A DNA stretch of 36,339 nt, taken from contig QPGO01000170.1 of the NCBI GenBank assembly GCA_008632985.1, positions 124,001 through 160,339 on the forward strand. The letters are read 5' to 3'. This DNA is from Psammoneis japonica. Its lineage: Eukaryota. Below are positions 4,349 to 24,601 of the stretch, piece after piece; the first letter of the stretch is position 1; each line of letters starts with the position of its first letter. The translations under genes were made by a program, and so were the position numbers. The notes beneath the pieces were generated by a model. The model was not told the origin of the DNA. It saw only the letters and a list, made by a program, of their open reading frames with translations, and searched no databases.

Positions 4349-5536
4349 TCAAATCCAAACTCCCAACTGCCACACGTTCTTGCATCTAAACCGCTTTGCA
4401 GAAAGTTTTTCACATTTTTGCTTTTCTGGATTTTGTTGTTTGTGTTTCAATTTGCACTTGCACACCAGTTTGGTTGGCCACCATTGCAGCATTTGCCACC
4501 GCTCCATTGCCTGCAGCCACCGCCTGCAATGGCAGGTCCTCTCCCATCGGCACCGCCCATCCTTCCTCTCTCTCCTTTCTCTTTTCCTCTCTTTTGCGTT
4601 TCTTGTTTTCCTCCTTGGACAAGCTCGTCTTCTCTTGCCTTCTCTCTCCTTGAACCATGCACCGAATCCCTGGTTGTTCTCTCTGTCTTTCACCACCCAC
4701 TGGCACAGATCATTGTGCTTCTTGATCCCCTCCTTGCTCCATCCTTGGTTCCTCTTTGCCAATTCCCCCACTGCCTGCGCTGTGTGCTTTGCAGGAGCAG
4801 AGTCTTTCACTGTCAGCTTTCTTCTCCTTGCAACATTTTCTTCCTTTTCCAATTTCTCGGCCGTGTCCTTCACCTTGTTGCAGTGGCTCAAGTGCACTGG
4901 CAGAGCAAACGCCTCTGACGAAATGGAAAGCCACTCCTGAAGCATGTCGGTTGTGCTTCCACCAAACTGCGCTTGTCCCACCACCATCGGCACCACAGTT
5001 TCCAAGAACCATGCGCGTGTGTCCTTGTCATTTCTTCCCTTTGTCAAATCTTCACAATCCACCAGCGATCCCTCTAAAGCAGCAACTGCACAGATGAAAG
5101 CAAAGGAAGCAACACTCATCCCGTTGGACAATCGCCTCCAACACAATCAAAGGCGCGCACACATCTGCTTGCCTGTCATTCTCCTCCCAATGTTGTCCTG
5201 CACATTGTTCCTCTTTTGGTTGAGTTTGGTTCTGAACACCTCTTTGCATTCTTCCCAGAATGCCTCCGGTGAAGACGCCATGCTCCTCAACTCCTGCAGA
5301 ACCAATTTCATGCAATCTCCTCCTGCAGCAAGTTCTTGATCAAAGATTGTGAACTTGCCATGTGGCCAAACACTTTCATTGATTGCCTTTGTCAGCACAT
5401 CAATGCTGTCAATCTCTCGCCCACCGCTGGTGCATGATCCAACACAAGACATCCCTCTGTGGGAGTCACCACCGAACTTGAATCCCCACCTGTGCCTGGA
5501 ATCTGTTTGGTTTCCCATGTCCATTTCTTTGTGCAT
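4349..5536 (-). pseudogene. Decayed two-exon gene, transposon-associated hypothetical protein
   Basis: ORFs 5147-5536 (VWPHGKF...FWEECKEVFRTKLNQKRNNV) and 4349-5146 (SSEAFAL...KHT...GWSKEGIKKHNDL...KDR) join in frame (M-T-V-A-A-L-E-G) if an 87-bp intron 5172->5086 is removed. The motifs resemble proteins I recall beside diatom Plavaka-like transposases (unverified). Confidence 0.5.
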
Positions 5537-6307
5537 GCAACAAGGCCGCCACCGCAGGACTCATGGTGACTTCATGTGACACCACACAGGTGAGCCCAAT
5601 TCAGTCAGTTCTTCAGCAACTCTTTGTCATGTCCTTTCTCAACCTCACTTGCTGCTGGAAGTTGCGCTTCCTCCCTCCATTGCTCCTGTGAGAACTGCAT
5701 CTTCCATCCTTTTTACCTTCCCAATGGCTTCCTCTCATTTGGAACTTCTGTCCTTTCCTGTCACTTTATGAACAGGCAAGTTGCAAAATGAATGCACTTT
5801 GCATGTGATTTTCTCTGTTTTGTTGTTGCTTGCATGTCCTCTCTTGATTCAAACATGTCTTTGCATCATTTTTGAGTGCTCATTCCCAACCCCATGTTTG
5901 AATTTCTGTCAACCTTCCACTGTTTTGAATTGCGCACCTTTGCCAGCCAATCTACAACACACCAATGAAAATTGCAACATCATTTGGGTCAATGTCAAAC
6001 AACACATTTTACACTCTTGCATTGGTGCATGCATTGTGCCTGCTTCCTGATGCAACATCAGCTTCATTTGGTTCAATGAGGTGTGTCAAACCTCCTGTTT
6101 GTTTGTGCAAATCCACATTGCTCATTGTCTCTTGTCAATTCATCCCTGTCTCAATCAGTCATTCTCTCTGTTTCCCCTGCACCACATCTCTCCAATTGCT
6201 CTCTCTGTTGCCCAAACTGTCCAGCCCACTTTCCAGTTGTTCAATGTGTGTGTGCATCAGCAAAAGCATCCGTCCACAATTTCACACATTCCCTTTTTAG
6301 TCCTCCA

Positions 6308-7072
6308 ATGGCTGCCAAAGCATGTCATTGTCACTGAGATGTGGTCGTTGTGAGTCGTTCCTGTTGTGGGAACGTGCGCTCCCTCCATCGCAATCACATG
6401 CAGCCAACTGATGATCAAATTGGTTGTTTTGCTGGTGGTGGCGTGGAATCACACGGCAGCATGGCAAGCTTTGCCTTCTTCACTGAGGTTGTTTGTAACC
6501 CTGCTCTCCTTGTGGCCCAAACTTGCAGCCCTTTTAATTTCATTGACATTGGTGGTGGTGTTGCCGGTTTTGCGATTGCCTGTTGTTTGCTTGTTCCTTT
6601 CTGCAATGCCTGCAGCATTGAGTTCCACCGCCCCCCTCATGATTTGGGCTCTCAGTGGTGCAATGCCATCTGGCCTGACCACACCAGTTGCTGTCCCACC
6701 CTGATCAATCAGGACTTCCTCTCTGAAGATGATGCTGTGCGTCAGTTGTGCCGTCAGAACAACTTAAAGATTTTCTTCAACAACTGCAATGGGCGAATGC
6801 TTTTTGACGACAATGCAACACAGAACCAACTCAAGGAGATGCTGCCCAATGAGTGTCCTGAAGGTGCTGTCATCATTTCGCTGGACGTGATGTTTTGTGC
6901 GCATGCCCACAAATGGAGGCATGAAGCATTCTTTGTTCCTGCCTGTCCAGACGATCCATCATGGGGAGGCAGTGTCAACAGGCACCCACTTCACAAGTGC
7001 ACCAAGAAAAGAGACGATGCCGTGGAGCCAAGGCATTCCACCAGGAATGACCCAGGGTCTGACATCAAATGA
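6308..7072 (+). pseudogene. DOT1-like (H3K79-type) class I SAM-dependent methyltransferase, hypermutated
   Basis: Motifs in DOT1 order: HGS (cf. YGE), FIDIGGG (cf. FxDLGSG), SIE (cf. GIE), QDFL, IFFNN (cf. IFVNN), PEGAVIISL (cf. KEGGRIVSS). ATG at 6308 is in frame, with a TGA at 6335 (plausibly CGA->TGA). Confidence 0.65.
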
Positions 7073-7234
7073 AAATTTGAGCCCGCCAAAAGTGGGCAAC
7101 TTGGCACTTTCCCTTTTTTTGTGTGACTTTCTTCCATGCAAGCAATGCATTGTCAATTGGCCCTTCGCACAAACTTGCTTTTTACCTTTGCTGACTTGCT
7201 GCTCAGCCAGTTTTGCATTCCAACAACTGCTTGT

Positions 7235-8243
7235 TCACACGCTCACTGTGTCGAAATTGTGGACTGGACATGCCATGTTCCTTTGATCCGAGTTCTTTTT
7301 GTCAGGCAAAGCTCGGTGCAACATTCTTGCATCAAAAACAAATGCAGTGCCTGCTTCTCCAACCAGCAATTGTTTTTCCAAACCCAACCTGACCAAGTGT
7401 TTTTTGCATTCCTTCTCATTCAATGTTGCCTCACAACCATCCAGCCATGTCTCAACTGCACCATTGTCCTCCATTGTGTCATCGAGGAACAGAAACATGG
7501 TGAAAATTTTGTCGCCAGGAAACAATTCTGTTTCCACGCAATCACAATGAATTTCCCCCTTTGACCAGAAGTTTGATGTTGAGCTTGAAAACTTGAAGCA
7601 GGGGCGTTTGCTGCTGTGTGCCGGGATGTCTTTCTGCATGAATCACCTGCTGGGGGAAAGCCAGGAATTGACCCCAACATTTTTCTGCCAACTCAATGCC
7701 TTCCGCCTTGTCCTTTTTGTCAATGATGAACTCACTGACAAAACGGTGTCCTTCCTTCTCTTGCTTGCTGCTTGGTGCCTTGTTTGCCAGGGTTGCAATC
7801 TTGTTGAACAGGGGTTGTGGTGTTTTGAATTTTTGCAAGCAGCCTTTTTTTCCTTCCTGGTGCACTCTTTCTTTGGACCCGGCCATCTTGCTCTTGACGA
7901 CATGAGATTTCATTTCACCCGGGTGTGCCAGTAACTTGCTGTGTTTCTGACATGATGTTGTCGGCCAATGGGCAAATTTCCAGCATCCGTCAACAGAACA
8001 CTTTTGCACCATTCTCTGAACATGCCGGCTCCACCAAATCAAATGGAACCCAGTCTTTTTTTTTAAGCAGAACAGACCCAATTCAGCGAAAGTCCGCATC
8101 CATTGCTGTGCAATGAGCATGGCTTTCTTGTGAAATCTGTGTTGCCAACGGCATCTGTTGGGTGCACGGCAGACGTTTTTTTCGTAAATGGTCCAGTGTG
8201 ATGTGATCTTCGTCCATCCTCTTTGCTGCATGATCTCATTCAA
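7235..8243 (-). pseudogene. PhyH-like 2OG-Fe(II) dioxygenase, frameshifted and hypermutated
   Basis: GEIHCD (HxD), TMFLFLDD..DNGAVETW, GEAGTAFVFDARMLHRA (distal His) and a downstream Arg in ORF 7235-7639. The N-terminal part probably lies in ORF 7542-8243, with a frameshift near 7560. Confidence 0.65.
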
Positions 8244-8435
8244 TGGGTCATCCCAGCTGTCTCAAAGCACAGAAAACAATTTGGTTGCACACTGTCTTGT
8301 CAGTGTTTTTGTGTGATGTTTTCATGTTGACACCGCGGCCAACACAAAGGAACAGCCACCATCCACCATTCATTCCGCACCAAAAACAAACTCTTTTAGA
8401 ACAATGTGTGCAATGAACAACTGCAAATGATGCTT

Positions 8436-8735
8436 CGGTGTCACTTTTTAATTGACACACCCACATGTCAACAGATCAATTTGGTGCCATTTTTTGTTGA
8501 TGCACTTGTCTGCCAACAGACCAATTTGGCACAACTTTTTCATTGTTGCACACATGTGTTGACATGTGTGTTTGGCATCACTTTTTTGTTGACACACCTG
8601 TCTGTCAACAGAGCAACTTGGTTTCACTTTTTTGTTTTGCACATGTGCGCCAACAGAAGAATTTGGTGTCACTTTTTTGTTGATGCACCTGTCTGTTGAC
8701 AGATCAATTTGGTGTCACTTTTTTGTTTGCACACT
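8436..8735. repeat. Degenerate tandem array, ~45-bp unit, ~6-7 copies
   Basis: Consensus approx. ttggtgtcacttttttgttgacacacctgtctgtcaacagatcaat, with an internal inverted pair TGTTGAC...GTCAACA. Confidence 0.85.
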
Positions 8736-9024
8736 GAACAAAAGCCAGTGCATTGTCGTGACATAAAGTGGATCTCCCGCAGCAAACCACATTCTCCCAA
8801 ATCTGGTCCAAGTCGCTGATCAACGCATTTTGAGCAGCAAACGGACAACGTTGGGGCAACTCTGTCTCTTGTCCTCCGCAGCCATGTCATTCCCTTTGTG
8901 AAACAATGACCTCAACATGATCCCACCCCAAAGAATGCCTCCCAATCCCTTGCCTGTTGTGCCACGTTGCTGAAATGGAGCTGACGAATCTCTTTTTTGT
9001 CCGGCGCATCGCACTTCTTTCCTG

Positions 9025-10544
9025 ATGACATTCCACCCAACTCAACCTGACATTGCTTTGCCACTGCCATGTCACAAAACAGCGTTGGCCAACATTCCAT
9101 CTGGCCGTTGTCCCCCATCGGTGCATCCAGCCCCGTTTGGCACAGAAAACAGCCTTGACACAAAATTGAGGCTGCATTGTTCTCCCACACGTTGGGTGAA
9201 CAAATGCGGTCACGTTCATTCATCACTCAAAAAAAGGGGTTTGACAGACCACTCAATCCGCGGCATTGTGCTGATGATGTTTGGTGCAAAAATCTTTGCG
9301 TTTGAGAGCAGTGGGAAGAGCAATGCATGCAACCCAAACCGCCTTGGTGAACTTGCAAAATGGCCGGCACATCCAAGCTACATTGGATTGGCTTTGAAGA
9401 GGGCTCCCAGAGCTGGCTCAACGAAAGAAAAAAAGGCATGCAGAAAAATCATTGATGTGCACTGCCTCCAAACCAAAAAATGCAAAAGATCTGTGGTGGT
9501 TCAGGTGAGGGATTGCATCTTGCGCACTGCTTCCATTTCCCATCTGTTCCTCACCCAACAAAATGCATGTTGATTTCTCCTAGAATGAAAGCAAAGCTAA
9601 AAGTCAAATGATTGCCACTGGTGTTGACTCCGGTGTGGAGGCTGCCCATGACTGTGACAATGACACAACTTGGGCAGAGACGGATGTCATGGATGACGAA
9701 CATCAAATTTTGACTGGGGCAGAGAGTGAAGAAGTGTTGCCAGCAAGGGATTGCATCTGTCGCACCACTTGCATTTCCCATCTGTTCCTTGCCTGACAAA
9801 ATGCATGTTGATGTCTCCTGGAATGAAAGCAAAGCTAAAAGTCAAACAATTGCCACCGGCATTGACTCAGGTGAGGAGGCTGCCCATGACTGTGACAACA
9901 ACACAACATGGGTGGAGACGGATGACATGGATGACAAATGTCAAATTTTGACTGGGCCAGAGAGTGAAGAATTGTTGCATGATGCTGGCAGATTGTTGAC
10001 AATTGGCATGGAAGTCGGTGGTGATTTAAATGGAAGTGACAAAGATGCGCGCAACAGCATTCAAACTCAATGCCTGCAGGATCTTGGATGTGATGTTTGC
10101 ACAATTGACAAGAAGACATGCGCTGTGCTTCCTCACTGAAGCACACAGAGTGCGATGTTCTAAGTTTGCACAGATCAGCGGAATGGAAGAGATCATCCAA
10201 AGAGACAAAGTTTGACCGCACTTGCTTTGACTGCGTGCATTCAAACCCAGCGCATCTCTTGGCTTCAGTTCTAAAGGGACCTTTTTTCCAAGATGCACTC
10301 AAGGAGCTGCTGCTGTTGCTGACGGAAAATGGGATTTTCTTCTTGCCTGCATGCAATCTTGCTTTTTCCAAATTTTGGGTCAAATGGAAGAAACAACACA
10401 TGTCGGAAGAGTGCCCAATTTGCTTCTTGCGTGAAGAGCAAGCACAGAACAAGGTCCCCATCCTTTGAGACAAGGCACAAGTTGACATCTCTGCCTGCGG
10501 AAAGTTTTGTGCAAGGGAAGAGTGCACAAAGGATCATGAGTTAA
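9025..10544 (+). pseudogene. Decayed multi-exon gene with duplicated acidic exon and possible C-terminal methyltransferase-fold domain
   Basis: Phase-0 introns 9505-9583 and 9743-9821 join ORF 9025 (...VVVQ) to two NESKAKSQ...ESEE exons. Downstream FDRTCFDC...LTENGIFFLP weakly resembles class I MTase beta4/beta5. Confidence 0.45.
9505..9978 (+). repeat. 238-bp tandem duplication of an intron+exon unit
   Basis: 9505-9742 aligns with 9743-9978 (gaatgaaagcaaagctaaaagtcaaa at 9583 and 9821). Many differences are TG<->CA swaps. Confidence 0.92.
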
Positions 10545-13157
10545 AACATGAAGAAGTGAAATGGCTCACACAACCAGGTGAAGCTGTGTTGGCGCATTTT
10601 CCAGATTTTGGAGGTCCAGTCAAATGCATCGGATTGGCCAGAAGAAGAAAGGACCCTTGCCATGTTCCAGTTTTCACCGGTGGCAACTGTGTGCATTGTC
10701 CAACATGCAGTCTCAAGAGACAGAGCATTTTCTGCAATGCCCATGTTGCAGGCCGGCTCCCATCCGGAATGCTGTGCAGTTTGATCTTGACTGCAAAGAT
10801 GCACCTGACTCTGCATGTGGAACAAAAAACAGCAAGAAAACCAAGGAAGAATCTCTCCTCCACCAAATCAAAAAGTGCAACGCCAATCTTGTCAGTTGTT
10901 GGAGGAAGAAGGGCCAACCACATGGGGCGGGTGGCAAGAACTGGGGTTTGTTGTCAATGCGTCCCAAAAGCCTTGGTGACAATTCCAACAACAAAAGAGA
11001 AGTCAAGCAAAAGTTCCACCTGAAACAACCTCGCCGGAAGTCCAACAAGCTGTCTGATGCGTTCGACAACAACATCCTTTTTGTTGAAAAACCAGGCAGG
11101 GAGGGAACGAGGTGTTCCCTCATCATCCACTTCAAGCTGCGTGCAATGCACATGGTGTGATGGGTCCAAATGCTTTAGAGCAAATGAGTCGGCACCTTCA
11201 ATGCAAGGCAGAGATTCTGCACTCGGGTGCCAACCACCCGCACCGGGCAAGTGATCCAACTCATCCATTTGTTTTGAACCCAGATGCAATGGAGGGAATC
11301 ACCAACAATGCTGTCTTCAGGTCACGCAAGTTTGACAAAAGAATTCTTGGACTCGGTTTGTCAACGCAGCTCAGAGCCATTGTTGAACAGGGGCTGAGCA
11401 GTGGGTCAGCACGAGAGTTTTTACTTGCTGCAAAGTTTGACCATTCATGTCGAGGCACTGTGCCAAAGATTTTGGCATGAATGGAGTGATTGCTCAAGGG
11501 TGGAGCCGCAATGGTGGATCAGGTGTTGCAAAGCCTGGAATGACAGAAAAGGAAAAAGACCTCTCTGCCAGGTGCAGACAGTGGATTTTGCAGCTGACCG
11601 TGATTTTGGTTCACGTCATGTGCCAAAAAGCTTTGCATGGAACACCAAGGTCTTCCCAAGGAGAAATGTTGGAGTGAAGATGAAGGTTGTCTGAGAAATG
11701 CCAAGCCTGGTTGGGTTGCCCAGAACAATTGCGAGGTGTGTTAAAGCTCAATGAGGCAGGATCTCACATTGCCGGTTTTCCTCTAAAACACTTTGACTCA
11801 GAAAATGAGCGGGAATTCCTCTTGGATGACATTGGCAACGGTGTTGTGTTCATTGATGATTGGCGGGGTTGCAACACTGGCAAAGATTTGGTGGATGAGC
11901 TGAGAAGGCATTCGGCACCCATCACGAACACAATGTTTGACCATCTGTTGCAAAACAGAGAGATCGTCGGAGTTCAGTTACAAAAGCTGCTGTTCAAGAC
12001 GGATTGTGAACATGCAAATGCCCCATTGGAACAACTGGAATCCCTGACAGATGGCTTCAACCTTTCCACAATGGAAAACACAGATGATGTTCAGTGCGCC
12101 ACCCAACACATTGGGGATCACCTTCAGTGATTTGACAGTGGCGACCATGAGGGCATGTTGGGATTGCTTGTTGATGAAGGCTCAGACAGAGACCTTCTCC
12201 TGGGATCACCCACAGCTGGTTCAATTTCACATTTCACTGTGAGGGGCATGTTGCTTTCCACCACAGAGACGAATTCGCGGCATTTGTGGGCATGGAATTC
12301 AATGGCGCACCTCTTGTTGCATTGAGGGAATCTGTGAAACCTGAAAACCAAGAATCTGTGAAGACTTTGTTGCAGAAAAATGAAGTGGGATTGTTGCGCC
12401 ACCAACTGGTGTTGATGATGAAGCAACTGAAGAACAACGGCAACATGAGCGGAACAACGTGTTCAATGTTGCAGAGATTTCAATGCATGGATCCTTTGTT
12501 GACCAACATTGAAGAGATGCAAATCTGCTGTGCATTCATTTCCAGTCAATTTGACACTCTGCAGGCAAAGGACACTGGCGGAAGTCACGAATCTGCCAGG
12601 GAACTTTTGTTTTGTCGAGAAGCCAGGAAGAACAAATCACCCAAGCAGTGGTTGCCAAGCAAGAGGTTGGGCGATGTGCGCGTGGCTTTGACGATCCAAT
12701 CGGCTTCCGCGATGGGACAAATCCCCCCTCAAAATGCGCAGTGGCATGCACATCCAAGGGCAACTCTGGATTTTGTCTCTTTGTCAGCATGTGTGTTGTC
12801 AGGAAGGAAGCACATGCGAGAGGTGAATGGATCTCCTTGTTGAAGGCAAGGGAAGTTGTTCAAAATGCAATTGAAGTTGCAAGAAAAAATGGCAGAAGAC
12901 CAACTTGGGCCAAATGTGACCAACTGGGCTGCAGGGAATGTCGATCAATGAACAACAAGTTGTGTGAGGATCCATGCCACCTCACATCTGGCGAGTGGGG
13001 TGTGTTGCCCGTTCCCTCTTTGGAACATTCGAACAAGTCGACAAGCGGTTTGTGGCCTGATGAATCAGAGCACAGGATTGAATGTTTTGTTGGTGACCAA
13101 TGGTGTGATTTTGTCAACTCATGTCAGTGTTTGCTCTTGAGTCAAGTCAAAGCATGA
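10545..13157 (+). pseudogene. Large decayed coding region, function unknown
   Basis: Consecutive protein-like plus-strand fragments (11687-12130, 12286-12843, 12612-13157) broken by TGA stops and frameshifts. No family recognised. Confidence 0.4.
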
Positions 13158-13400
13158 ATGGATGAAGCAGAAGGGTTTGTTCCAATTCCGAGAATCGAAA
13201 CTGAGCGGGACCAACCAGCACTTTTAGACAAATTAGCAAGATCTCACTGTTCGCTGCACTTGCTGATGGAAGGACCAACAAGGAGTGGAACCAACAGATG
13301 CTTTTAGATGGGTTGACACGCCTTCACAGCAAACTCATTAGAACACTGACAGAGTGCTTAAAAAAATTTACGAGCGTTTCCTTTTTCCCAAGGTGCGTTG

Positions 13401-14560
13401 TCATTTCTCTTCATCTCGCTTCCTGCGTTTGTCTGAGTGAAGCTGGAGCACTTTGTTGGACAGGAAATAATTTGGCCAGTCATTGTGTCTGTCTGCAACA
13501 AACAACAATGAGTTCGAGCATCCCGCTGCTTCAACATTGTCTCCATTGCAGTTGTTGGGAACCAGGACAGAGAAACCACCCGCTGTAATTGCGTCTCTGC
13601 CAGCATGCCAAAATTTTGGGACATGCAATGTCTTTGTCTGTTCCTTGCATGACTGTCCTGCGGCAAGTGGCGTTGTTCCGTCATCAGCCAGTGCAAAACC
13701 ATGGAGCACAAAAGGGTGCCTTTTTTTCTGACCGGTTCCCTCTTTGCACAAGACCCTGGGTGTGTCACACCACAACCCATTGTTGTTGCAATTGGGGTGT
13801 CCATGAATTAAAATCCCTTTCTCTGGCATGGCAAACTCCGAGCAAACAACAATTTCATCATGCTTGGTGGACAGTTCCTCCGTTGGCAACAACAAAAAAT
13901 GAAGCAGGGTGGAGTCCACTTCTGCAGTTTCCGGGACAACCCGGATCTTGTTGCTGCCTGAACACTGACAGCAAGTTTGGGCAGTTCTGTTCACAACAAA
14001 CAAGGGGTGCATCAATTTTCTTCAGAGGAAGATGCGCTTGCCTGGCCAACCATGGGATGGATGAGAGGGCTGCATGCCTTCTCGAGAACTGCCATGTCAT
14101 GCAAACGAACAACAAGTTGGTCCAAGAAATTGTCTGCACCCAAAGCAACCTGGCAAGTTTTTGCCGGAAGCTTGGCCCAGAACTTCAGGTGACTCTCTCC
14201 AGTCATGGCAGAGAAATTTGCAATCTGGCCACAAAGGAAAGAGTCGACAATGAGATGCAGCATAGAATGGAACTTGGTGGTCCGGAACAAACTGGTGTTC
14301 CTTGTGCGATGAAGGCAAACTTTTGTCTTGAACATGAGCAGGATGACGCGGCACTTGAAATCCACCTTTCCTGTTTTTTCATGGAGTCCCTTGCTGCAGA
14401 GACAAAACAAATGGAAAAGCAGCACATGATGCAACAAGTCCAACAATTCATCAACTCCACAATCGACGGATTTTCATGAAAGAGTCAGGAAGTTTGTTTT
14501 CCATTTCTGCACAAATGACAGTGCTTGGCAATTTTGACTTGGTGAGAAGAAAGTGCCATC
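13401..14560 (-). pseudogene. Plavaka-like transposase, C-terminal portion (left of the copia insertion)
   Basis: TKFHSMLHL...GQIANFSAMTGESHLKFWAKLPAKTCQ (14012-14446) and IHGHPNCNNNGLWCD (cf. HPNY...WYD) in ORF 13401-14015. Confidence 0.7.
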
Positions 14561-14565
14561 TGTCT
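14561..14565 (+). repeat. 5-bp target site duplication TGTCT (left copy; right copy 21609-21613)
   Basis: ccatc-TGTCT-tgacagg at the left end; ctgtca-TGTCT-gctc at the right end. Confidence 0.95.
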
Positions 14566-14841: not shown

Positions 14842-14858
14842 GATTGACAGTCTTGCTC
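14842..14858 (+). promoter_or_regulatory. Putative primer-binding site, half-tRNA type
   Basis: gattgacagtcttgctc directly follows the LTR. Its reverse complement GAGCAAGA-CTGTCAA-TC resembles an anticodon arm, and there is no TGG complement to a CCA end. Confidence 0.45.
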
Positions 14859-15715
14859 ATTGTCAACCCATTGAGCAACCGCCATCATCGTCGTTGATTT
14901 TCCAACGACGCTGTTTTTAATTCTGCGTGGACCTCCGTACATGTTCTACATGCATCGGCAAGTCTGCGCGCATTCAATGCCAGGGCATCGGCAGGAAGTT
15001 AACGTCACCGTCAAGTCTCCTCACCGCTGGACATCTGGATTGATCATGCTACCTTTGATCGCTGAAGACATACATTCAACGGTCACATCCAAGTCCATCC
15101 TTGATCCTCATCCCTTGATGTACCTGTTCACATCTTCACGGCCAAGAACCTGCACCCACTCTTCGGACTGCGGTTTTGCTGCCACTCTGCAAGCACACCG
15201 AGTCCATTGCACCTGATCTACCCCGGACCACTGGTGCTCTGCAGTTCCACTGGGTCCACGAGGACGACTGTGAGAGCAAGCAGCCGTGATTGCAGCCTGC
15301 GTTGGGGCGAGGGTGCTTTCCCGCGTTTGTTCGTTCGTCCACAGCGCCTGACGCCTACGTCAACTGGCCAGCCTGATCGGGAAATCCAACCGATGTAAAA
15401 TGAGAACGGTTCGGGGGTCTTGTCCACCTCTGGTCAGCTTACCTGCAGGGGTTTACAACCCGCTGCTCCGCTCGTAAGCAACCCAAAGCGCCACCAGCTG
15501 CGGGTTCGGACGTGCCGGCACAACTCTACGGACCGGATAGGAAGTTTAGCACTCAACAACGAACGGGATGACAAAGCCCGGCGACTTCTGATTTTTAAGA
15601 TAGTTCAAGATTTCAAGTCAAGTCTGTTTCAAGTCAAGTCCACTCTCACCCAAGTTTCGAGTCTACCTTCGCTTCCCAACCAGAATTGATTGTCCTGACA
15701 CCATTTTTGTCTACC

Positions 15716-18700
15716 ATGGTTCTCACTCGTCAGCAACAAACCGATGGTTTCGAGCACGTGGTTGGAACCGTGCTTGCCCAAGGTGCTGGGAGTCCTCTTC
15801 GTTTGGCTTTGGCCCAAGACGGCACGGACTCACATCAGGAACTATTCACGTTCATGCCGTCCCAAATCGACTCGCTTGAGTGCGACAACGGCACTAATGC
15901 AATCCCTTTGCCCCGTGGTTGTGAGAACATGTTAGCAGCACTGGTCAGTCTGTACATTGTTAAAGCACACAAAGGTCTTGACGTTGCCAACGACTCCTCT
16001 TTGTTCACGCATGACGAGTTCCTTGCCTGCCGCCTCAGCCCCGACTGCATGTCTTCTGTGTCCATCGGCAGCTCACCCCTTGCACCTCCACATGTCACCA
16101 ACCCGACCAAGGCACGCGACCCGGTGCGAGACTTCAAGCGAGGCATCAAGCGTGATCCCACCGCTTTCACGGCTCTCAAATCCGACAAGCAGTGGCACAC
16201 TTGGCACACCTCACTTGTGGCACAAGCCCGTGCCCAAGACGTCGAGTGCACTCTAGACTCGTCGTACAAACCGACCAGCCCCGAAGACAAACTGCTCTTT
16301 GCTGAACAGCAAAAGCACATGTTCGCCGTCTTCGAACGCATCCTTCTCACCGACAAGGGCAAGGCTCTCATTCGCGAAAATGTGGGGTCCTCTGACGCAC
16401 AGACCGTCCACCGCTCCTTGTCTGCACACGCGCTTGCCTCCACCCGTGCATCTGTCGAGTCCTCCACCCTGCTCACGCACCTCACCACCGCACGTCTTGG
16501 TGATGGCACTTGGAAAGGTCCGACCCACGGGTTCATCCTTCATTGGCAAGATCAGTTGCGCAAGTACGAGGCACTCATCCCCGCCAGCGACCACTTCTCT
16601 GAAGGACAGAAGCGCGTCATGCTCGAGAATGCCGTGCATCCTGTCGAGGAACTCCGTGCTGTCAAGAACCAAGCTGATCAGCATCGTACGCAGAGTGGCA
16701 AGAGCCTCACATGCGATCAATGCTGTGGCTTGCTCCTCTCCGCGGCAGCTCAGTGCGACAGCACGTTTCAACCCAAGACGACACCTCGAGCTCCCCGACG
16801 CGCCATGTGCGCACACGACGTCTGCTCCGAGGAACCGTCCGACGATGTGTTCTACGACATTGACAGCGACGTTGACGTCCTTCAAGCCAATGCTGCCTGC
16901 ACTCGTGGTCCCAGCCTCACCGGTGTCCAATGGAGACGTCTCCCTCCCGACCACCAACGGCTCTGGGATTCGTTGCCCGATTCCACCAAGGCGATCATCC
17001 TCGAGCACTCTCGTCCGCCTCCCCGCAACCCGCGAGCCAGTGACCACCATGAGTCTGTTATGGCCAACCTTCACGACCAACACCTTGGGAGTGACGGTGA
17101 TGTCAACTTGTCCAACACGACTCCTGCTGACTGTGGTGACCCCGCCACACATGTGGATGCCACTTCGGATGATCCCATCCTGGCGCACCTCACCAAGCGC
17201 AAGCCACTGCCACCCGGTGATCTGCAACGTCTGTTGTCTCCTAACCAAGCCCCCAATGCCAGTCGACCGGGGCCATCCGCCGCTTCCTCCACCCCGCCAG
17301 CTTCTGCAGATGACATGGAACTTAACGGCCGCACTTGCCGCCGCGTCAACAACCACAATGTCATTTGCTCTGCCTCTGCTCATCGCTCCACACGCACTGG
17401 CGCTCTAGTCGATCGTGGGGCCAACGGCGGCATTGCTGGCGACGACGTTCGCATCATTGCACGCACCTCTCGCCAAGTCGACGTTCAGGGCATCGACGAT
17501 CATCAATTGGTGGACATCCCCATTGTCACCGCTGGTGCCGTCATTGAGACCCAGCGTGGTCCCGTCATCGCCATCCTCCATCAGTGCGCATGCACGGGAA
17601 AGGGCAAGACCATCCACTCCTGCGGCCAGCTCGAATGGTGCAAACAGGATGTCAACGATCGCTCTGTCAAGGTGCCCAACGGCTTGCAACGCATTGCCAC
17701 TCCTGATGGCTGTGTCATCCCCATTGACATCAAGGCTGGCCTGCCTCATGTTGCCATGCGACCTTGCACTGACGCCGAATGGGACACCCTGCCCCATGTC
17801 ATCCTTGCCGGTGATGACACATGGGACCCTTCCGTCCTCGATCACTCTGTCACTGACGACGACCAGTGGTGCGACGCGATCTCTGATCCACAGGACGATC
17901 CCACTGCCAACCTGTTTGACGAATGCGGCAACTGCCGTCACCGTGTCATTGTCAACGAGACCATCTTGTCCGCTTCCTTGTCTGCCGATCACGCGTCCGC
18001 CCTCGATGATCACCTCATTCCGAACGACGACGTGTTCTACGAGTGTCATCTGCATGCGATTGACCCCACGGGCGATGACGTTCCACCTCCGGAGCGCACT
18101 GTAAAGCCCAAGGACCCCCCCTTCGAGTCTCTTCGGCCTTGCTTTGGCTTCCCACCTGCCGATGCGGTCCGTCGTACTTTTGACTGCACCACGCAGCACG
18201 CCCGCATGCCCGCCGGTACACACCTTCGCAAGGCCTGCAAATCACCCAACCCCGCCCTTAATGTGCACCGCCGCAACGAGCCCATCGCCACTGACACCGT
18301 TCATGCCGACACCCCGGCCGTCGACTCTGGTTGCACCAGCGCCCAACTGTTTGTTGGCACCGAGTCTACCGTCACTGACGTCTGCGGCACTGAGACGGAC
18401 AAAGAGTTTGTCAACACACTCGAGGATCAGATCCGTGAACGTGGTGCACCATCCAAACTCATTAGCGACCGTGCTCAAGTTGAGATCAGCAACAAAGTGC
18501 TCGGGATCCTACGCGCCCTCTTCATCTCCAGCTGGCAAAGTGAGCCTCACCAGCAACACCAAAACTTTGCCGAGCATCGATGCCAGACTGTGAAGCGCAT
18601 GGCGAACACTGTCATGGACCGTTTTGGTTCGCCCGCCCACACATGGCTGCTGGCGCTCATGTGCGTGTGCTTCATGCTCAACCATGCAGCATCCCCACGT

Positions 18701-21385
18701 CTCCACTGGCGCACGCCCCTCGAGACTCTCACTGGATCCACCCCGGACATCAGCCCATTGCTTCGCTTTCACTGGTGGGAACCAGTGTGCTTCCACCTCG
18801 ATGACTCCGATTGGCCGTCCGAATCTCGTGAGTTGCGTGGACGCTTCGTTGGCATTGCTGAGCACGTCGGCCACCAGATGACCTTCAAGATTCTATCTGA
18901 CGAGACTCAGAAGATCCTCTGCCGGTCCAACGTTCGCTCCGCCACCCCCGATCCTGCCGTTCGAAACCTGCGTCTTGATCCTCCTGATGGGGAGCCACCT
19001 GAACCCATCATCAAATCTCGCCATGACGACAACCCCGTCGATTCTCCTGATGGGGAGATCAGGACACCCAAGATGCCAGTTTTCGATCCGCAAGACATCA
19101 TTGGACGTACCTTCCTCATGCAGCCACAAGAGGATGGACAACGCCACAGAGCTCGCATCGTCAAGGCCGTCGAAGACCACGAATGGAAAGTGAACGGCAA
19201 TCCCGAGCTCACTAAGTTCGTCTGCTCTGTCAACAATGACGAATACGAGGAAGTCCTTGCCTGCAATGACATCATGAATCACATTGAGCAAGAAGACGAA
19301 GACACCACCATTTGGAAATTTCGACGCATCGTGTCACACGAAGGCCCTCTGAAGCCTCACGACCCAACCTGGAAAGGCTCAAGCTACAACATCATGCTTG
19401 AATGGGAAAGTGGGGAGATCACGTCCGAGCCTCTTGCCATCATCGCCAAGGACGACCCCGTCACCTGTGCCATCTATGCACGAGAGAACGGACTCCTCGA
19501 CACGGATGGATGGAAGCGGTTCCGCACCATCGCGAGGCGCCAAAAGAAGCTATTTCGCATGGCCAACCAAGCCAAGCTTCGCTCCTTCCGCACTGCACCT
19601 CGCCACAAGTGCGGATGCGAAGTTCCCCGGAACTACAAACACGCCATGTCACTAGACGAACACAACGGCAACCGCAAGTGGGGAGACGCAACTAATCTCG
19701 AGATGGACCAACTCGACGAATACGAAGTCTTCCATGACTGCGGGCCCTTCAAGTCTTCCACTCCTCCTGCGGGACACAAGAAGATCCGAGTCCACCTGGT
19801 GCACGACGTGAAACACGACGGTCGCCACAAGGCACGACTCGTAGCCGACGGGCACCTCACGGACGTACCTGTCGACAGTGTCCACTCCGGAGCAGTCTCC
19901 CTTCGTGGCCTTCGGCTGATGATTTTCCTGGCCGAACTCAACGAGCTGGAGACATGGGCCACCGACACTGGCAATGCCCACCTTGAAGCCACCACCAAGG
20001 AGAAGCTTTACATTGTAGCTGGACCCGAATTTGGCAAACTCGAAGGACACATCCTTGTCATCCACAAGGCACTGTATGGACTCCGCAGCTCCGGTCTCCG
20101 CTGGCACGAGCGCTTCGCCGACTGCCTGCGAGCTGAAGGCTTCTTCCCCTGCCGCGCCGAACCCGACATTTGGATGCGCAGGAACGGCGACCACTGTGAA
20201 TGCATTGCCGTTTATGTGGATGACCTCGCCATTGCCATGAAGGACCCTCAATCTTTCGTCGACACTCTCACGGAAAAGTGCAAGTTCAAGCTCAAGGGTG
20301 CGGGACCCATTGAGTTCCATCTGGGTTGCGACTTTTCCCGGGACCCCGACGGAACCTTGTGCCTGTCTCCGCGCAAGCACATCGAGCGCATGGTCGACAG
20401 CTGCGCCCGACTGTTTGGGGAGAAACCTGCCACCAATGCCCTGTCACCTCTAGAGAAGGGTGACCACCCCGAACTGGACACTTCCGAACTGCTGGGACCC
20501 GATGGCATTCACAAGTTCCAGTCTCTTGTTGGTTCACTCCAATGGGCAGTGTCCCTTGGTCGAATTGACATTGCCACGGCCGTCATGTCACTCTCTAGCT
20601 TCCGAGCTGCACCCCGTCAAGGCCACTTGGATCGTGCCAAACGCGTCTGTGGGTGCCTCTCCAAGATGCGACACGGTGCTCTCCGCGTTCGCACGGAAGA
20701 GCCCGACCATTCGGATCTCCCTGCTCCGGCCTACGAATGGATGCATTCCGTGCATGGTGAAGCAGAAGAGATGATCCCGAAGGACGCTCCACCGCCCCTT
20801 GGCAAGTTCGTCACTGCCACCCACTGCGTCGATGCAAACTTGCACCATTGCATGCTCACCGGACGCTCTGTCATGGGAATGCTCCACTTCCTCAACAAAT
20901 TCCCGGCTGATTGGTTCTCCAAGAAACAAGCCACCGTGGAGACTGCAACCTGCGGATCTGAATTTGTTGCCGCAAGGAATTGTGTTGAGCAGATTGTCGA
21001 CCTGCGCATCACCCTGCGCCACCTTGGCGTCCCGATCCGTAATGTCAGTCACATGTTCGGTGACAACAAGTCGGTTGTAGACAGTGCCACCATCCCGCAC
21101 TCCAAGTTACACAAGCGACACACCGCACTGTCGTTCCACCGTGTGCGTGAGGCAATTGCCTCTGGTTGCCTTGAGTTCCACTTCATCGAAGGCTCCCGCA
21201 ACCCTGCTGACATTCTCAGCAAGCATTGGGGTTGCTCCCAAATCTGGGACCTTCTCCGCCCCCTCATGTTCTGGAACTTCATTCCATCCGAAGTCGAATC
21301 TGTTTCTGTGGCTCCTCAAGCAAACTGGGGAGTGACAGGATTTGAACAGGATTTGGATGCGCGCGAAGCATCGCGCGCTGTTTAG
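15716..21385 (+). CDS. Copia Gag-Pol polyprotein (open frame, missense-riddled)
   Basis: ATG at 15716 (MVLTRQ). Protease LVDRGANGG (~17405); integrase ATDTV / ISDRAQVE / QNFAE (~18285-18575); RT KARLVADGH, KALYGL, YVDD (~19830-20225); RNase H VDAN, GSEF, FGDN, NPADILSK (~20830-21225). Confidence 0.95.
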   Translation: MVLTRQQQTDGFEHVVGTVLAQGAGSPLRLALAQDGTDSHQELFTFMPSQIDSLECDNGTNAIPLPRGCENMLAALVSLYIVKAHKGLDVANDSSLFTHDEFLACRLSPDCMSSVSIGSSPLAPPHVTNPTKARDPVRDFKRGIKRDPTAFTALKSDKQWHTWHTSLVAQARAQDVECTLDSSYKPTSPEDKLLFAEQQKHMFAVFERILLTDKGKALIRENVGSSDAQTVHRSLSAHALASTRASVESSTLLTHLTTARLGDGTWKGPTHGFILHWQDQLRKYEALIPASDHFSEGQKRVMLENAVHPVEELRAVKNQADQHRTQSGKSLTCDQCCGLLLSAAAQCDSTFQPKTTPRAPRRAMCAHDVCSEEPSDDVFYDIDSDVDVLQANAACTRGPSLTGVQWRRLPPDHQRLWDSLPDSTKAIILEHSRPPPRNPRASDHHESVMANLHDQHLGSDGDVNLSNTTPADCGDPATHVDATSDDPILAHLTKRKPLPPGDLQRLLSPNQAPNASRPGPSAASSTPPASADDMELNGRTCRRVNNHNVICSASAHRSTRTGALVDRGANGGIAGDDVRIIARTSRQVDVQGIDDHQLVDIPIVTAGAVIETQRGPVIAILHQCACTGKGKTIHSCGQLEWCKQDVNDRSVKVPNGLQRIATPDGCVIPIDIKAGLPHVAMRPCTDAEWDTLPHVILAGDDTWDPSVLDHSVTDDDQWCDAISDPQDDPTANLFDECGNCRHRVIVNETILSASLSADHASALDDHLIPNDDVFYECHLHAIDPTGDDVPPPERTVKPKDPPFESLRPCFGFPPADAVRRTFDCTTQHARMPAGTHLRKACKSPNPALNVHRRNEPIATDTVHADTPAVDSGCTSAQLFVGTESTVTDVCGTETDKEFVNTLEDQIRERGAPSKLISDRAQVEISNKVLGILRALFISSWQSEPHQQHQNFAEHRCQTVKRMANTVMDRFGSPAHTWLLALMCVCFMLNHAASPRLHWRTPLETLTGSTPDISPLLRFHWWEPVCFHLDDSDWPSESRELRGRFVGIAEHVGHQMTFKILSDETQKILCRSNVRSATPDPAVRNLRLDPPDGEPPEPIIKSRHDDNPVDSPDGEIRTPKMPVFDPQDIIGRTFLMQPQEDGQRHRARIVKAVEDHEWKVNGNPELTKFVCSVNNDEYEEVLACNDIMNHIEQEDEDTTIWKFRRIVSHEGPLKPHDPTWKGSSYNIMLEWESGEITSEPLAIIAKDDPVTCAIYARENGLLDTDGWKRFRTIARRQKKLFRMANQAKLRSFRTAPRHKCGCEVPRNYKHAMSLDEHNGNRKWGDATNLEMDQLDEYEVFHDCGPFKSSTPPAGHKKIRVHLVHDVKHDGRHKARLVADGHLTDVPVDSVHSGAVSLRGLRLMIFLAELNELETWATDTGNAHLEATTKEKLYIVAGPEFGKLEGHILVIHKALYGLRSSGLRWHERFADCLRAEGFFPCRAEPDIWMRRNGDHCECIAVYVDDLAIAMKDPQSFVDTLTEKCKFKLKGAGPIEFHLGCDFSRDPDGTLCLSPRKHIERMVDSCARLFGEKPATNALSPLEKGDHPELDTSELLGPDGIHKFQSLVGSLQWAVSLGRIDIATAVMSLSSFRAAPRQGHLDRAKRVCGCLSKMRHGALRVRTEEPDHSDLPAPAYEWMHSVHGEAEEMIPKDAPPPLGKFVTATHCVDANLHHCMLTGRSVMGMLHFLNKFPADWFSKKQATVETATCGSEFVAARNCVEQIVDLRITLRHLGVPIRNVSHMFGDNKSVVDSATIPHSKLHKRHTALSFHRVREAIASGCLEFHFIEGSRNPADILSKHWGCSQIWDLLRPLMFWNFIPSEVESVSVAPQANWGVTGFEQDLDAREASRAV
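21322..21332 (+). promoter_or_regulatory. Polypurine tract
   Basis: aaactGGGGAG directly abuts the TG of the 3' LTR. Confidence 0.7.
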
Positions 21386-21608
21386 TTCACCGCGCACAGT
21401 TTTGTGTGCTTTAGTTCCGCGCGTTCACGCGCGATGTAGTTTGCTTTCGAGCCACAAGGCTCACAAGAATAACAACAGTAGCCCGATCATGCCGACTTAC
21501 ACGTCTTTCGGCTCCTGCAACGGTCTCTGAGCGGAGACTCATCTGCTGTTTAGACAGCAGCAAGGAGTCATTGTTTGAATTCTTGCCATTTGCCTTCAAT
21601 TTCTGTCA
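21333..21608 (+). repeat. 3' LTR (276 bp)
   Basis: Matches 14566-14841 at offset 6767. Confidence 0.97.
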
Positions 21609-21613
21609 TGTCT

Positions 21614-24601
21614 GCTCACCTTGCAAAGTTGTCCCGATCATCCGCCAAACCAACGACAAGACCATGTGGTCCGGGCATCAACAATTGATCAGGTGAAGTC
21701 TCAACAGCCCGTTGGTTCCGTCTCAATGATTTGGTTTCATCCCATGCAATCTTCTGGCACAACAAAAAGTGACCATCATCCAGTTGATTGGAAAATGGTT
21801 CCCAAAATTCAGAAAGGCCGTGACGATGCATCTGTTGCATCACACAGCAGGCGACATCCAACCATGTGCCTCTGGGAAGTGCAACAGGCACATTCTCATC
21901 AACCGGGCTTGTGTTTGTTTCACCAGTTTGTTCATTTGATGGTTCAACGGGATCAGGGTCCTCATCGTTGGGTCCACTTTCTGACAATTTGGTCAGTTGT
22001 TCTTCTTGTTGCTTCTTTCCTTTAAAGCCATCAGCCGTCTTTTTCTTTTTGCTGTCAAAGGATGGATCGCACCTTTTTTCCAGCAGTTTTCTGCCAGCGT
22101 GTGTGTGGCCAATGATGGCAAGTGCAAGAAGCTTGCCCACCTTCTCGTCACACACAAGTTGACTGAGTGTGGAAAGTCCCCCATCAACTCAAATTCGCGG
22201 ACAGTCACGTCTCTGACCAGGACGACAATGGGATGTGCAGAACAATTCAGATGCAATCTGGCCGCACTCCTCTTTCTGTTTGGCAGACATGTCTCCTGTT
22301 GTTGCCTCCATCATTTGAGGGACAATGCCCACCTCCAACACATGCATTGTGTCAGCAATGGTCATGCCAAATGCACCGCGTGGGCTGTCACCCATGCCAA
22401 GTGGAAAGTGAGCATTGTCCACCATGTGCTGTCCAAACACTTTCCTCAACATTTTGGAGCACACAGTCATTCGGCGAATGAGGGAGGAAGCCAGCTCAGT
22501 CTCGGCCTTTTTTTTTTGATGTCATTGCACGATGCTTCCGGGCAACGCTTTTGACATGCTGGTGCCAACAGCTGTTGTCATCCTCTGGATCTGGGCCCAA
22601 TGCAGCAACAGCGAGCAACTCTGTGAAAGCCTGGTCAAAGAATTGGCAGACATGGAGGGGATCATCAGAAAGGTGGGAGGGCACATGGCAGTTGTGAGAC
22701 AACCTCTTGGTCTTGCTTTGGCCCCATGTCTCTTCCACAAATGTGTTCTTGATTGAGGACATCCCCCAACAGGGAGTTGCAATGCATTGTGGCTCTGACA
22801 CAGCAGCATTGAGTGCCTGTCATTGCACGAACAATGGGTGGATTTGCCTGGCAATGAAGCAGACCACGGAGAACCTCCTTGAGAATGTGGTGGCAGTTGG
22901 CAACAACAAGGCACCCAAGCTTGTCTTTCTTGCATTTCTTGTCCAAATTGGGTGTGAATCCAAGTGGATGCCAACAACGACAGTCGCGGCGTGTGTCCTC
23001 TCGAATCATGGCAAGTGAGTGCATTGCAGGCTCCATCCCATGAGGATTGACCGCATCAACTCCAGTCTTGTCCGGGCATTTGACAAGGTGAATGTGAAAG
23101 TCAGAGGCTGTTTCCTTGGCATTGGAGCAATGTTGTTGCCACTCGCCATCACCCATGTCTTGACTTTGAGTGGACAATTGCCAGTCACCAGGACAATCCA
23201 GGAACTGCATCTCAACACTGTCAGCCTGGCCAGCACTGGAACCCAAATCACCGTCAGCAGTGGGTGGCACACAAGGTGACCAGATGTCATTTGGATTGAC
23301 CTGCAACTTGGAAAGATCACGGAACACTGGCTTGGCAAAGAGATCCTGCAAGGTCTTGGTGAAACTGCAAACTGGGAAAGGTGGGGAGTGACAACATTTT
23401 GGTCCATCCTTCTGTTGCTGCATTGGATTGTTGCATTCAAGCATCACAACAGCAGTGCGGGGGAGAGGAACATTGGGAAATGGCCCCAGGAGTTGCTTCA
23501 TTGCCACGGTGGTTGTGATGGGGGCTTTGACACATCCAGTCTTTTTTCTGCATGCTCTTCATGCTAAATTCTCATCACTTTGTCAATGAAGTCAATTGCG
23601 ACACCTGACCGATGACATGAATGATGCAAATGCACTGTGGGTGCAATGCTGGGTGAGTTGACTGGAGGTGCATCAAAGTCCTCATTGGGTGCAACATCAT
23701 GCACTGGGCCAAGAGGATTGTGTTGATTGAAGGAAGAAACAGGCTCTTCCATTGGACGGGAAATTGAGGGGGGCCCAGAACTGCCATTGAGATGGTCAGC
23801 TCCAATGAACTCGGGGACATCCACAGGACTGTCCTCTCCAAGGGCAGACACGCCATTGTCTGCAAACAAAACAAATTGGCGGGCATTTTGGGAGGCTGCA
23901 CTGGCAGCAGCAATGTTGGCGGCTAAACGCAATTGACCAGACCGTCTGATGGAGGGTGGGCGCAGTCCATTTCCGGCAGAGGGAGGGCAAGCTGGAGAAG
24001 AATTGTCCGATGGTGTGGGAGGAGATGGAGCTGGATTCCAAAGGACTTTGGGGAGGGGAGGAGGGGGTTTGTCATCGGCAAAACCAAACCCAGCAGGATC
24101 GTCATGGTCGTCCAGTGATTCATCATCTGCAGGGGGGAGTGCATTTGTGGCATTGGAAGATGCGGCATGCCGGCAAAGGGACATTTCCTCCTTTTTGCGG
24201 CAGGGCAAGTGCTTCTGTAGATGAAGGGCGATGTTGGAAAAGGGGACACGGCAATGGGGGCATTTGGGTTTGTTGGTGTTGGACCCAAGGGAGCCAACGG
24301 AGGCGGAATCCAGAGGATGAGAGGAAAGAGATGTTCTGCCGCATGGGGAAGACAATTGGGTTGCATGGCGCAACTGTGTCAATGGGGGATGAAGGCCAAA
24401 TGCAGCAGCACAGTGCCGAGATGGGTGACACTGCACATTGTTTTTGGAGTCAAATCCACATTGTCTGCAACGAGGACAACTGAAAGACTTGGTGGAAACG
24501 GCAGAACGGAGGCAGTTAGTTCTGATGTGCCTGCTGAGACCACGTTCGGAAAAGAAGCCAGTTTGTTTGCACCATGGACAAACAAGACCATCAGACAACA
24601 T
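21614..24601 (-). pseudogene. Plavaka-like transposase, N-terminal and core portion with C2H2-type zinc fingers
   Basis: ATG at 24601 (MLSDGLVCPWC...LSRH; CPRC; CPHC...LQKH). Core motifs PDKTGVDAVNPHGMEPAMHSL...WHPLGFTPNL, NCHHILKEVL, LLGD...ICG, VDNAHFPLGMGDSPRGAFGMTIADTMHVLEVGI. Several stops and frameshifts. Confidence 0.75.

Follow-up and report, generated by a model that had tools for sequence, protein, structure and literature searches.

A probable giant cargo-carrying transposon of the Plavaka lineage in a TpA-depleted block of Psammoneis japonica

The stretch of DNA analysed here (the window; 36,339 nucleotides, positions 124,001 to 160,339 of contig QPGO01000170.1 in the GCA_008632985.1 assembly of Psammoneis japonica) holds a long block from which the dinucleotide TpA has almost disappeared. 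Within this block, positions 4051-25070 most probably represent one insertion of a giant cargo-carrying transposon of the Plavaka lineage, which belongs to the EnSpm/CACTA-related CMCT clade and has PlavakaB-like ends, and which is now dead. An earlier note on the window, made from its letters alone, had proposed a multi-gene element of at least 13 kb without the copia retrotransposon nested in it, and had placed it at 4349-24601 without finding its termini. Those positions lie inside an element that turned out to be wider, and both termini have now been located, with 13,972 bp remaining between this single pair of ends once the copia insertion and its 5 bp duplication are subtracted (Table 1). 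The view of the block as one mobile unit is supported by one terminus pair, a target-site duplication, an empty site, a step in CpG content and sequencing depth.

Ends, target site and transposase

Since transitions leave the purine or pyrimidine class of a base unchanged, inverted repeats were sought in a two-letter purine/pyrimidine alphabet. Under this coding, positions 4051-4075 and the reverse complement of 25046-25070 agree at 25 of 25 positions (20 of 25 as nucleotides), and all five nucleotide mismatches between the two termini fall on CG, CA or TG sites. Beyond these 25 nucleotides a weaker similarity extends to about 110 columns. When the whole window was scanned on both strands, the right terminus was the sole zero-mismatch partner of the left one (0.002 expected), and the terminus does not recur inside the element.

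The host DNA on both sides of the element (2000-4050 and 25071-28000) is built of diverged, directly oriented units of 336-367 bp arranged in arrays, and the outer edges of the terminal repeats coincide with the independently defined breakpoints of these host repeats. In this regard, a paralogous host unit around 25431-25439 is free of the insertion and reads ...GCAACATCACACACAG (in a fuller reading, ...GGGTGCAACATCACACACAG), whereas the occupied site reads ...GCAATGTC, then the element, then TCACAGAGAG (with ...GGGTGCAATGTC as the fuller reading to the left of the element). Comparison of the empty and the occupied site leaves a duplicated TC, so that the duplication is 2 bp long or, if the right end is placed at 25069, possibly 3 bp (ATC originally, GTC now on both sides). 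Moreover, the observed/expected ratio of CpG rises sharply at both ends, from about 0.1 outside to about 0.4 inside the element. Sequencing depth was taken from public run X1 in the form of Logan contigs, possibly the assembly's own data, of which 14,739 were placed on window positions 1-20000. It jumps from one contig at 3975 to 16 contigs at 4256, consistent with an end at 4051.

The transposase was assigned through its relatives. When the open reading frame (ORF) at 22668-23558(-) was searched by phmmer against 1.84 billion representatives, 175 relatives were recovered at E ≤ 1e-3, 19 of them at E ≤ 1e-10, the best one at 1.1e-37 with 38% identity. Fourteen of the 25 relatives that were scanned matched the Plavaka family PF18759 at E ≤ 1e-3, and 12 reached its curated cut-off of 26.3 bits. 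With the 60 best relatives as tblastn queries, 127 pieces were obtained, and the 120 listed are all collinear and on the minus strand, at 24010-21673 or 14578-13416. Homologues jump from 21673-21715 to 14578-13416; relative P0003, for instance, aligns with its residues 166-689 and then 725-887, straddling the copia. Given these collinear pieces on both of its sides, the copia must have split the transposase gene.

The catalytic residues have been kept, as DKTG (first D), GD (second D) and D.MH..E.GIVP (E), and they align with the invariant columns D184, D288 and E420 of a 14-sequence alignment. The C(2)C...H-x3-H region reads RLSHNCHVPSH, with H-x3-H present and with Ser in place of the first Cys, as in relatives P0001 and P0005, where the family consensus is CRAC. 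Weak zinc-finger-like motifs are found in the N-terminal part (zf-C2H2_4, E 0.044), and a word-based protein search with the transposase ORF for longer proteins returned no match. Altogether, transitive homology and the terminal motif support a DDE transposase of the Plavaka lineage, and the Plavaka-like transposase proposed before thus gains the PF18759 matches of its relatives and termini of the PlavakaB type. The copy itself is dead, as the gene carries three reading-frame changes between 23947 and 21979, seven in-frame stops in aligned columns and the copia split.

Table 1. Features located in the window, with positions counted from its first letter.
Feature	Positions	Strand	Remarks
Whole Plavaka-type element	4051-25070	- (transposase strand)	21,020 bp in all, of which 13,972 bp remain when the nested copia with its 5 bp duplication is subtracted
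Left target-site duplication	4049-4050		TC; GTC at 4048-4050 if the duplication is 3 bp
Left terminal inverted repeat	4051-4075	+	starts 5'-CATCT
Right terminal inverted repeat	25046-25070	-	plus-strand end ...AGATG-3'
Right target-site duplication	25071-25072		TC
Transposase gene, N-terminal and catalytic part	21609-24718	-	phmmer relatives, collinear tblastn pieces
Transposase gene, C-terminal part	13416-14565	-	homologues continue past the copia, e.g. P0005 residues 647-995
Gene A, conserved partner gene	4352-5560	-	one in-frame TGA at 5147-5149; reads outward to the left terminus
DOT1-like methyltransferase ORF (lead only)	6338-7069	+	244 aa, open; ESM features
PhyH-type 2-oxoglutarate (2OG)-Fe(II) oxygenase gene	7238-8261	-	catalytic half 7253-7576; N-terminal Cys/His motif 7938-8009
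Tandem array, 6.5 units of 46 bp	8437-8734		flanked by the oxygenase gene and by gene D
Two tandem copies of a 238 bp unit	9508-9978		87-88% identity; a run contig passes from 9631 straight to 9874, without one of the units
Gene D, large protein	10115-12828	+	converges on the transposase; ORF pieces from about 9714 to 13154
Nested copia long terminal repeat (LTR) retrotransposon	14566-21608	+	later insertion, not the element's own; LTRs 14566-14841 and 21333-21608
Copia ORF	15599-21385	+	intact, 1928 aa; RVT_2 E 5e-25

Accessory genes and their relatives in metagenomes

Four further genes lie between the termini, and their company elsewhere was followed in 51 metagenome loci encoding transposase relatives, searched with the translated element and then with unmutated ORFs. 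Homologues of gene A were recovered in 10 of the 51 loci by tblastn with the decayed window query and in 22 with unmutated queries, always upstream of the transposase and divergent from it; the copy of locus L016 aligns to 4628-5356. The gene reads outward, 301 bp away from the left terminus in the window and about 370 bp away from a 5'-CATCA start in L022 and L023. The element copies in these two loci are 99.9% identical and begin 5'-CATCAGAGATGGG next to different left flanks. An inverted-repeat search found no convincing termini in six long loci, and the right end of the element in L022 and L023 was likewise not found. Gene A gave no Pfam match, the L016 protein had no PDB match at E ≤ 0.01, and gene A pieces aligned poorly over 26 rows, with 15% mean column identity.

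Gene D aligns in three pieces to residues 522-1540 of a 1695 aa ORF, L013:4316-9400(-), which is likewise convergent with its transposase. Five relatives of gene D were found, all of them unnamed and free of Pfam domains, and the L013 protein had no PDB match at E ≤ 0.01. The plan common to the longer loci is gene A reading outward, the transposase and then a large convergent gene, and the convergent genes of L013, L037, L026 and L040 have no mutual similarity at E ≤ 1e-3. An HhH-GPD DNA-glycosylase domain occurs in L026:6857-10369, L028:5286-6290 and L029:7823-8938 (E 3e-10 to 1e-8), and the ORF of L026 occupies the convergent-gene slot beside a Plavaka-like transposase; such glycosylases are another class of enzyme that could act on modified DNA. 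Judged from these comparisons, the convergent position appears to behave as a variable cargo slot. When 68 flanking ORFs of the loci were run against Pfam, PhyH (one ORF), HhH-GPD (three ORFs) and one sub-threshold pilin-like match were obtained, and nothing else.

The gene for a 2OG-Fe(II) dioxygenase that the earlier note had read from the letters is indeed there, with a frame change near 7545-7642. It is of PhyH type, unlike the TET/JBP enzymes invoked as its precedent: six-frame and ORF-wise Pfam scans of the window gave no match to the TET/JBP family, and the ORF and its homologue in L023 match PhyH instead. PhyH clusters account for 27 of the 30 ESM feature neighbours of this ORF. Its catalytic half is 37% identical over 108 aa to L023:7674-8432, where HRD corresponds to HCD and the distal His is kept, and the N-terminal Cys/His motif of that homologue aligns to 8009-7938. 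The L023 ORF passes the Pfam PhyH threshold (24.2 bits, cut-off 22) and sits 1.7 kb downstream of a related transposase, whereas L022 lacks this PhyH segment although both loci are 99.9% identical over 7,276 bp; the PhyH gene may thus be variable cargo. A PDB sequence search with the oxygenase ORF at E ≤ 1 returned nothing relevant. In the array next to this gene, the 46 bp consensus unit contains the inverted repeat GTTGACA-N8-TGTCAAC, and L023 has no comparable tandem array beside its PhyH gene. In another locus, L037, the palindrome TCTAATCAAGAAGATTGATTAGA and its variants recur within 12087-12685, at 12087, 12280, 12473 and 12663 (a spacing of about 190 bp), upstream of the large convergent gene of that related element, in a manner reminiscent of the 46 bp array.

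The ORF at 6338-7069 probably encodes a DOT1-like methyltransferase, an assignment that we treat as a lead. Its first match in the ESM Atlas scored 0.96, with 206 of 256 features shared, 19 of its 30 neighbours are DOT1-only clusters, several are Nucleocytoviricota clusters, and a GxGxG-type motif (IDIGGGVAG) is visible. The DOT1-like methyltransferase named in the earlier note keeps the ESM lead and finds no confirmation in Pfam. The PDB (E ≤ 1) and word-based searches for relatives were also negative, and a single-sequence AlphaFold model, with a predicted local distance difference test (pLDDT) of 32.9, was unusable. A possible second methyltransferase was not confirmed, as no methyltransferase family was found in the Pfam scans, either in six frames over 2000-28600 with X at stops (E ≤ 0.01) or ORF by ORF (E ≤ 1). 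The RVT_2 domain of the copia was the sole match of the six-frame scans, whose sensitivity is lowered by the decay, and the ORF-wise scans gave just weak 2OG and zinc-finger matches from the element.

Whether the cargo genes accompany the transposase in other genomes was the comparison that the same note had asked for. Three of the four extra genes appear to keep company with this transposase family in other loci (gene A in 22 of 51, D in L013, PhyH in L023), and DOT1 does so in none of the 51 loci.

Regional decay and the nested copia

The nearly TpA-free domain extends from about 1660 to about 28370 (26.7 kb) and is thus larger than the transposon alone. TpA rho is 0.03-0.06 in the decayed block (0.06 in 4051-14565 and 0.04 in 21609-25070), with CpA and TpG in excess (rho 1.68-1.99); in the normal flanks TpA rho is 0.43 and 0.59, and CpG rho 0.89 and 0.97. 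CpG has been lost as well, down to 0.40 in 4051-14565 and 0.38 in 21609-25070, and further down to 0.14 in 2000-4050 and 0.08 in 25071-28000, the outer host blocks, which are the lowest of the window. Both rho values are near-equal on the two sides of the copia, so that the uniformly decayed block described from the letters holds, and this uniformity marks one unit. As TAA and TAG need TA, TGA stops are the only ones left in the block, and all six frames therefore look half open. In the transposase alignments, the window carries Cys at five and His at one of the six columns where the relatives conserve Tyr, and Tyr makes up just one of 1,288 aligned window residues, a replacement that reads as the codon-level trace of TA to TG or CA. 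The decay process is a regional one, composed of TpA to TpG/CpA transitions together with CpG loss over the entire block.

The nested copia bears on the timing of this process. Its LTRs (276 bp, TG..CA) are 95.7% identical and flanked by a TGTCT duplication, and they differ at eight TA sites and one CpG site and nowhere else. Three of the eight TA sites read TG in one LTR and CA in the other, and each LTR must therefore have mutated separately from TA. The TA-eroding process acts after insertion and is still recent. The loss is graded by age, with TpA rho of 0.03-0.06 in the host repeat and the element and 0.23 in the young copia (14566-21608), which has already lost half of its TpA and in which CpG is normal (rho 0.94). 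About 11 of 24 inferred ancestral TA sites of the LTR have changed, and one of about 40 CpG sites, which gives a direct gauge of the relative rates after insertion. Summed depth over the copia in run X1 reaches 45,000-200,000 (about 60 for single-copy DNA); this extreme depth and the intact ORF indicate that the copia family is extremely abundant, and it was probably active recently.

Two other readings of the TA loss were rejected. Classical repeat-induced point mutation raises TpA, which is lost here. A base-calling or assembly artefact is countered by a 2,281 bp run contig that reproduces 1800-4079 with three differences, and further by the copia LTRs, which differ only at TA and CG sites, with the caveat that the run is possibly the assembly's own data.

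Around the element, about 5 kb of host repeat within the TpA-free domain stand at single-copy depth in run X1, with summed values of 67-115 and a contig of depth 64. Outside that domain, the left-flank bin 668-1334 has a summed depth of 2,254, compared with 136 and 364 in the adjacent bins, and seems to hold a short repeated piece. The normal right flank contains a 486 aa ORF at 28773-30233 (-), which includes a 63 bp (21 aa) unit in at least five tandem copies at 29044-29412 and has a weak importin-like TPR match (E 0.006) as its sole Pfam match, followed by a 585 aa ORF at 30697-32451 (+) with an FG-GAP_2 repeat (E 2e-15), a candidate for an ordinary host gene.

Alternative origins, meaning and known systems

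Copy number was approached through depth. Run X1 contains 49% of the sampled words of 4349-14348, and its single-copy flanking contigs have a depth of 57-66. Over the element, summed depth is 1,533-4,638 in 4003-8004 and 837-1,680 in 8005-14007, that is, 13 to 70 times that of the flanking single-copy contigs (4003-14007), and the bins holding the DOT1-like and oxygenase ORFs stand at 1,533-3,829, compared with about 60 for single-copy DNA. Differences among the placed contigs are mainly transitions (237-282 per transition type, 23-43 per transversion type). Two other runs, X2 and X3, covered just 4 of 30 and 9 of 30 bins. By these values, every examined part of the element, the DOT1-like and oxygenase ORFs included, appears to exist in tens of related copies.

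Several observations weigh against a single Plavaka element with its own cargo. A purine/pyrimidine run of 25 was reached in 7 of 200 local shuffles, so the inverted repeat alone is modest evidence, and the weight of the end assignment is borne by its position at the host breakpoints. Eleven of the 25 scanned transposase relatives, the six best matches among them, have no Pfam match, and the decayed ORFs of the window do not match PF18759 in the ORF-wise scan (E ≤ 1). The direct matches of the oxygenase are sub-threshold, both for 2OG-FeII_Oxy_3 (E 0.01, 17.2 bits, cut-off 27) and for PhyH (PF05721; E 0.076, 13.7 bits, cut-off 22), and, as the right end of the L023 element was not found, the PhyH gene of that locus may lie outside the element. 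The DOT1-like ORF lacks a Pfam match at E ≤ 1 (PF08123 included), and a DOT1 homologue is absent from every one of the 51 metagenome loci. Summed contig depth is not a copy number, run X1 is possibly the assembly's own data, and 4003-8004 stands at about three times the summed depth of 8005-14007. Finally, the order in the window is A, DOT1-like, oxygenase, array, D and transposase, compared with A, transposase and large gene in the relatives, and the D-transposase pair is therefore inverted relative to A, with two genes added.

Both the uneven depth and this gene order leave room for a composite history, in which two or more nested or adjacent mobile elements formed the block, for example a Plavaka core with D and the transposase to which a more abundant element, bearing A, the DOT1-like ORF and the oxygenase, became attached. 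The step in summed depth (about 1,500-4,600 to about 840-1,680) is located at the repeat array 8437-8734, and in the metagenome relatives gene A stands directly beside the transposase, unlike in the window. We nevertheless consider this history unlikely, since the block has one terminus pair with no internal terminus copy, a single target-site duplication and a single empty site, since TpA and CpG have decayed uniformly across both halves, and since gene A is a family-wide partner of the same transposase family. Internally deleted derivatives, a frequent product of DNA transposons, could likewise account for the higher depth at one end.

Much less probable is that host DOT1-like and oxygenase genes were trapped between transposon fragments in a repeat-rich, hypermutated region. 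DOT1 and PhyH are common cellular families, and the lack of DOT1 homologues near the related transposases of the 51 loci would fit this origin, but both ORFs lie inside the termini, their bins have the multi-copy depth given above, their CpG level is that of the element and not that of the host block, and a close homologue of the oxygenase stands beside a related transposase in L023. That the block is a piece of an integrated giant virus, of a virophage or of something similar is scarcely credible: the Nucleocytoviricota neighbours of the DOT1-like ORF and a TpA process described on viral insertions (10.64898/2026.01.13.699255) point that way, but no viral hallmark family appeared in the six-frame Pfam scans, the DDE transposase, Plavaka-type ends and short duplication are those of a transposon, the depth suggests tens of copies, and that same preprint reports TpA-depleted coding sequences to be enriched in DDE and reverse-transcriptase domains.

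For the giant Plavaka-lineage element, the following course can be proposed. In an intact copy, by what is known of the family, the DDE transposase would cut at 5'-CATC[T/A]...[A/T]GATG-3' termini, and the excised element would be pasted elsewhere with duplication of a 2-3 bp target. The accessory enzymes might act on the chromatin or DNA of the element itself and blunt host silencing, with the 46 bp units and their inverted repeat as possible binding or docking sites for the oxygenase. Later on, the copia insertion split the transposase gene, and TpA to TpG/CpA change with CpG loss has rewritten the whole block. That the extra genes work against silencing by acting on the element's chromatin or DNA seems the most likely role for them, because of the analogy with the giant Plavaka of red algae, the fungal transposons carrying TET/JBP genes and VANDAL.

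This copy and its 51 environmental relatives suggest that the giant cargo-carrying Plavaka design, described so far from red algae and fungi, also occurs elsewhere and with a different cargo. Given intact copies, an element defined by its ends, duplication and gene map would be a basis for testing the idea of transposon-borne anti-silencing. Moreover, the nesting of an old host repeat, a transposon and a young copia provides, within a single locus, a time series of the TpA to TpG/CpA hypermutation, a process that hits transposons and neighbouring DNA of single-copy depth, together with CpG loss. A wider picture, which we offer tentatively and hold to be rather doubtful, would be that of an undescribed PlavakaB-like giant lineage in a TpA-hypermutating protist and many environmental eukaryotes, whose swappable slot for chromatin or modified-DNA enzymes acts as a counter-silencing kit, regional TpA (plus CpG) hypermutation being the host's irreversible answer.

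Giant Plavaka elements with chromatin-type accessory genes have already been published from red algae and fungi. The cargo set of the window (DOT1-like, PhyH-type, gene D) and its setting of TpA hypermutation were not found in the literature searched, nor was a DOT1-like cargo on a Plavaka element in that searched on Plavaka and on accessory or anti-silencing genes of DNA transposons. In fungi, Plavaka-type transposons carry TET/JBP dioxygenase genes (PMC12730594), and PlavakaB, of the CMCT clade, is described with 5'-CATCA..TGATG-3' ends and 2 or 3 bp duplications (Kojima 2025, PMC12730594). Compared with that description, the window element shares transposase relatives matching PF18759, a 2 or 3 bp duplication and an accessory oxygenase of the 2OG superfamily, and its 5'-CATCT..AGATG-3' ends keep four of the five terminal bases, L022 and L023 starting with CATCA itself. 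Unlike PlavakaB as described, its oxygenase is PhyH-type and not TET/JBP, its cargo of four extra genes is far richer, its closest relatives are environmental eukaryote contigs and not fungi, its own ORFs stay below the Pfam model, and Ser replaces the first Cys of C(2)C in the window, P0001 and P0005.

The giant Plavaka of the red alga Bostrychia measures 17.4-19.1 kb and carries the accessory genes PAG1-3, of which PAG2 is described as an N6-adenine DNA methylase (PF01555) with SET (PF00856), and PAG3 as ParB-like plus 2OG oxygenase beside tandem inverted repeats (10.1101/2025.02.11.637652). As far as that published description goes, by which alone PAG1-3 were compared, both elements are giant (14 kb here), combine a transposase with several accessory genes, have a 2OG oxygenase by an inverted-repeat array, one chromatin-type methyltransferase gene (a probable DOT1-like one here) and one gene without a function assignable by homology, and are degenerate in most copies. 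The window differs by having the extra large gene D, by no ParB family match on its ORFs (ORF-wise Pfam, E ≤ 1) and by no N6-adenine methylase or SET in six-frame and ORF-wise Pfam scans, where decay lowers sensitivity, the DOT1-like ORF being found instead.

Plant VANDAL elements, which are Mutator-like, encode the anti-silencing protein VANC. The element of the window, known from its sequence alone, would resemble them in principle, in that a DNA transposon evades silencing through a protein which it encodes and which targets the transposon's own sequence, and it differs from them in belonging to another superfamily with unrelated proteins.

The decay, in turn, has its closest counterpart in Bigelowiella natans, where a preprint (10.64898/2026.01.13.699255) reports experimentally observed hypermutation only on TpA (to TpG/CpA) in integrated viral regions, with an ADAT2-like adenine deaminase proposed as a candidate and with the TpA-depleted coding sequences enriched in the domains mentioned above. 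Both processes change TpA to TpG/CpA only, deplete TpA with an excess of CpA and TpG, and act regionally on foreign or mobile DNA. Unlike in that report, the depletion is near-total here (rho 0.03-0.06) and coupled with CpG loss, which the accessible text of the preprint does not mention, and its extent takes in the DNA transposon, the young copia and, at single-copy depth, about 5 kb of host repeat.

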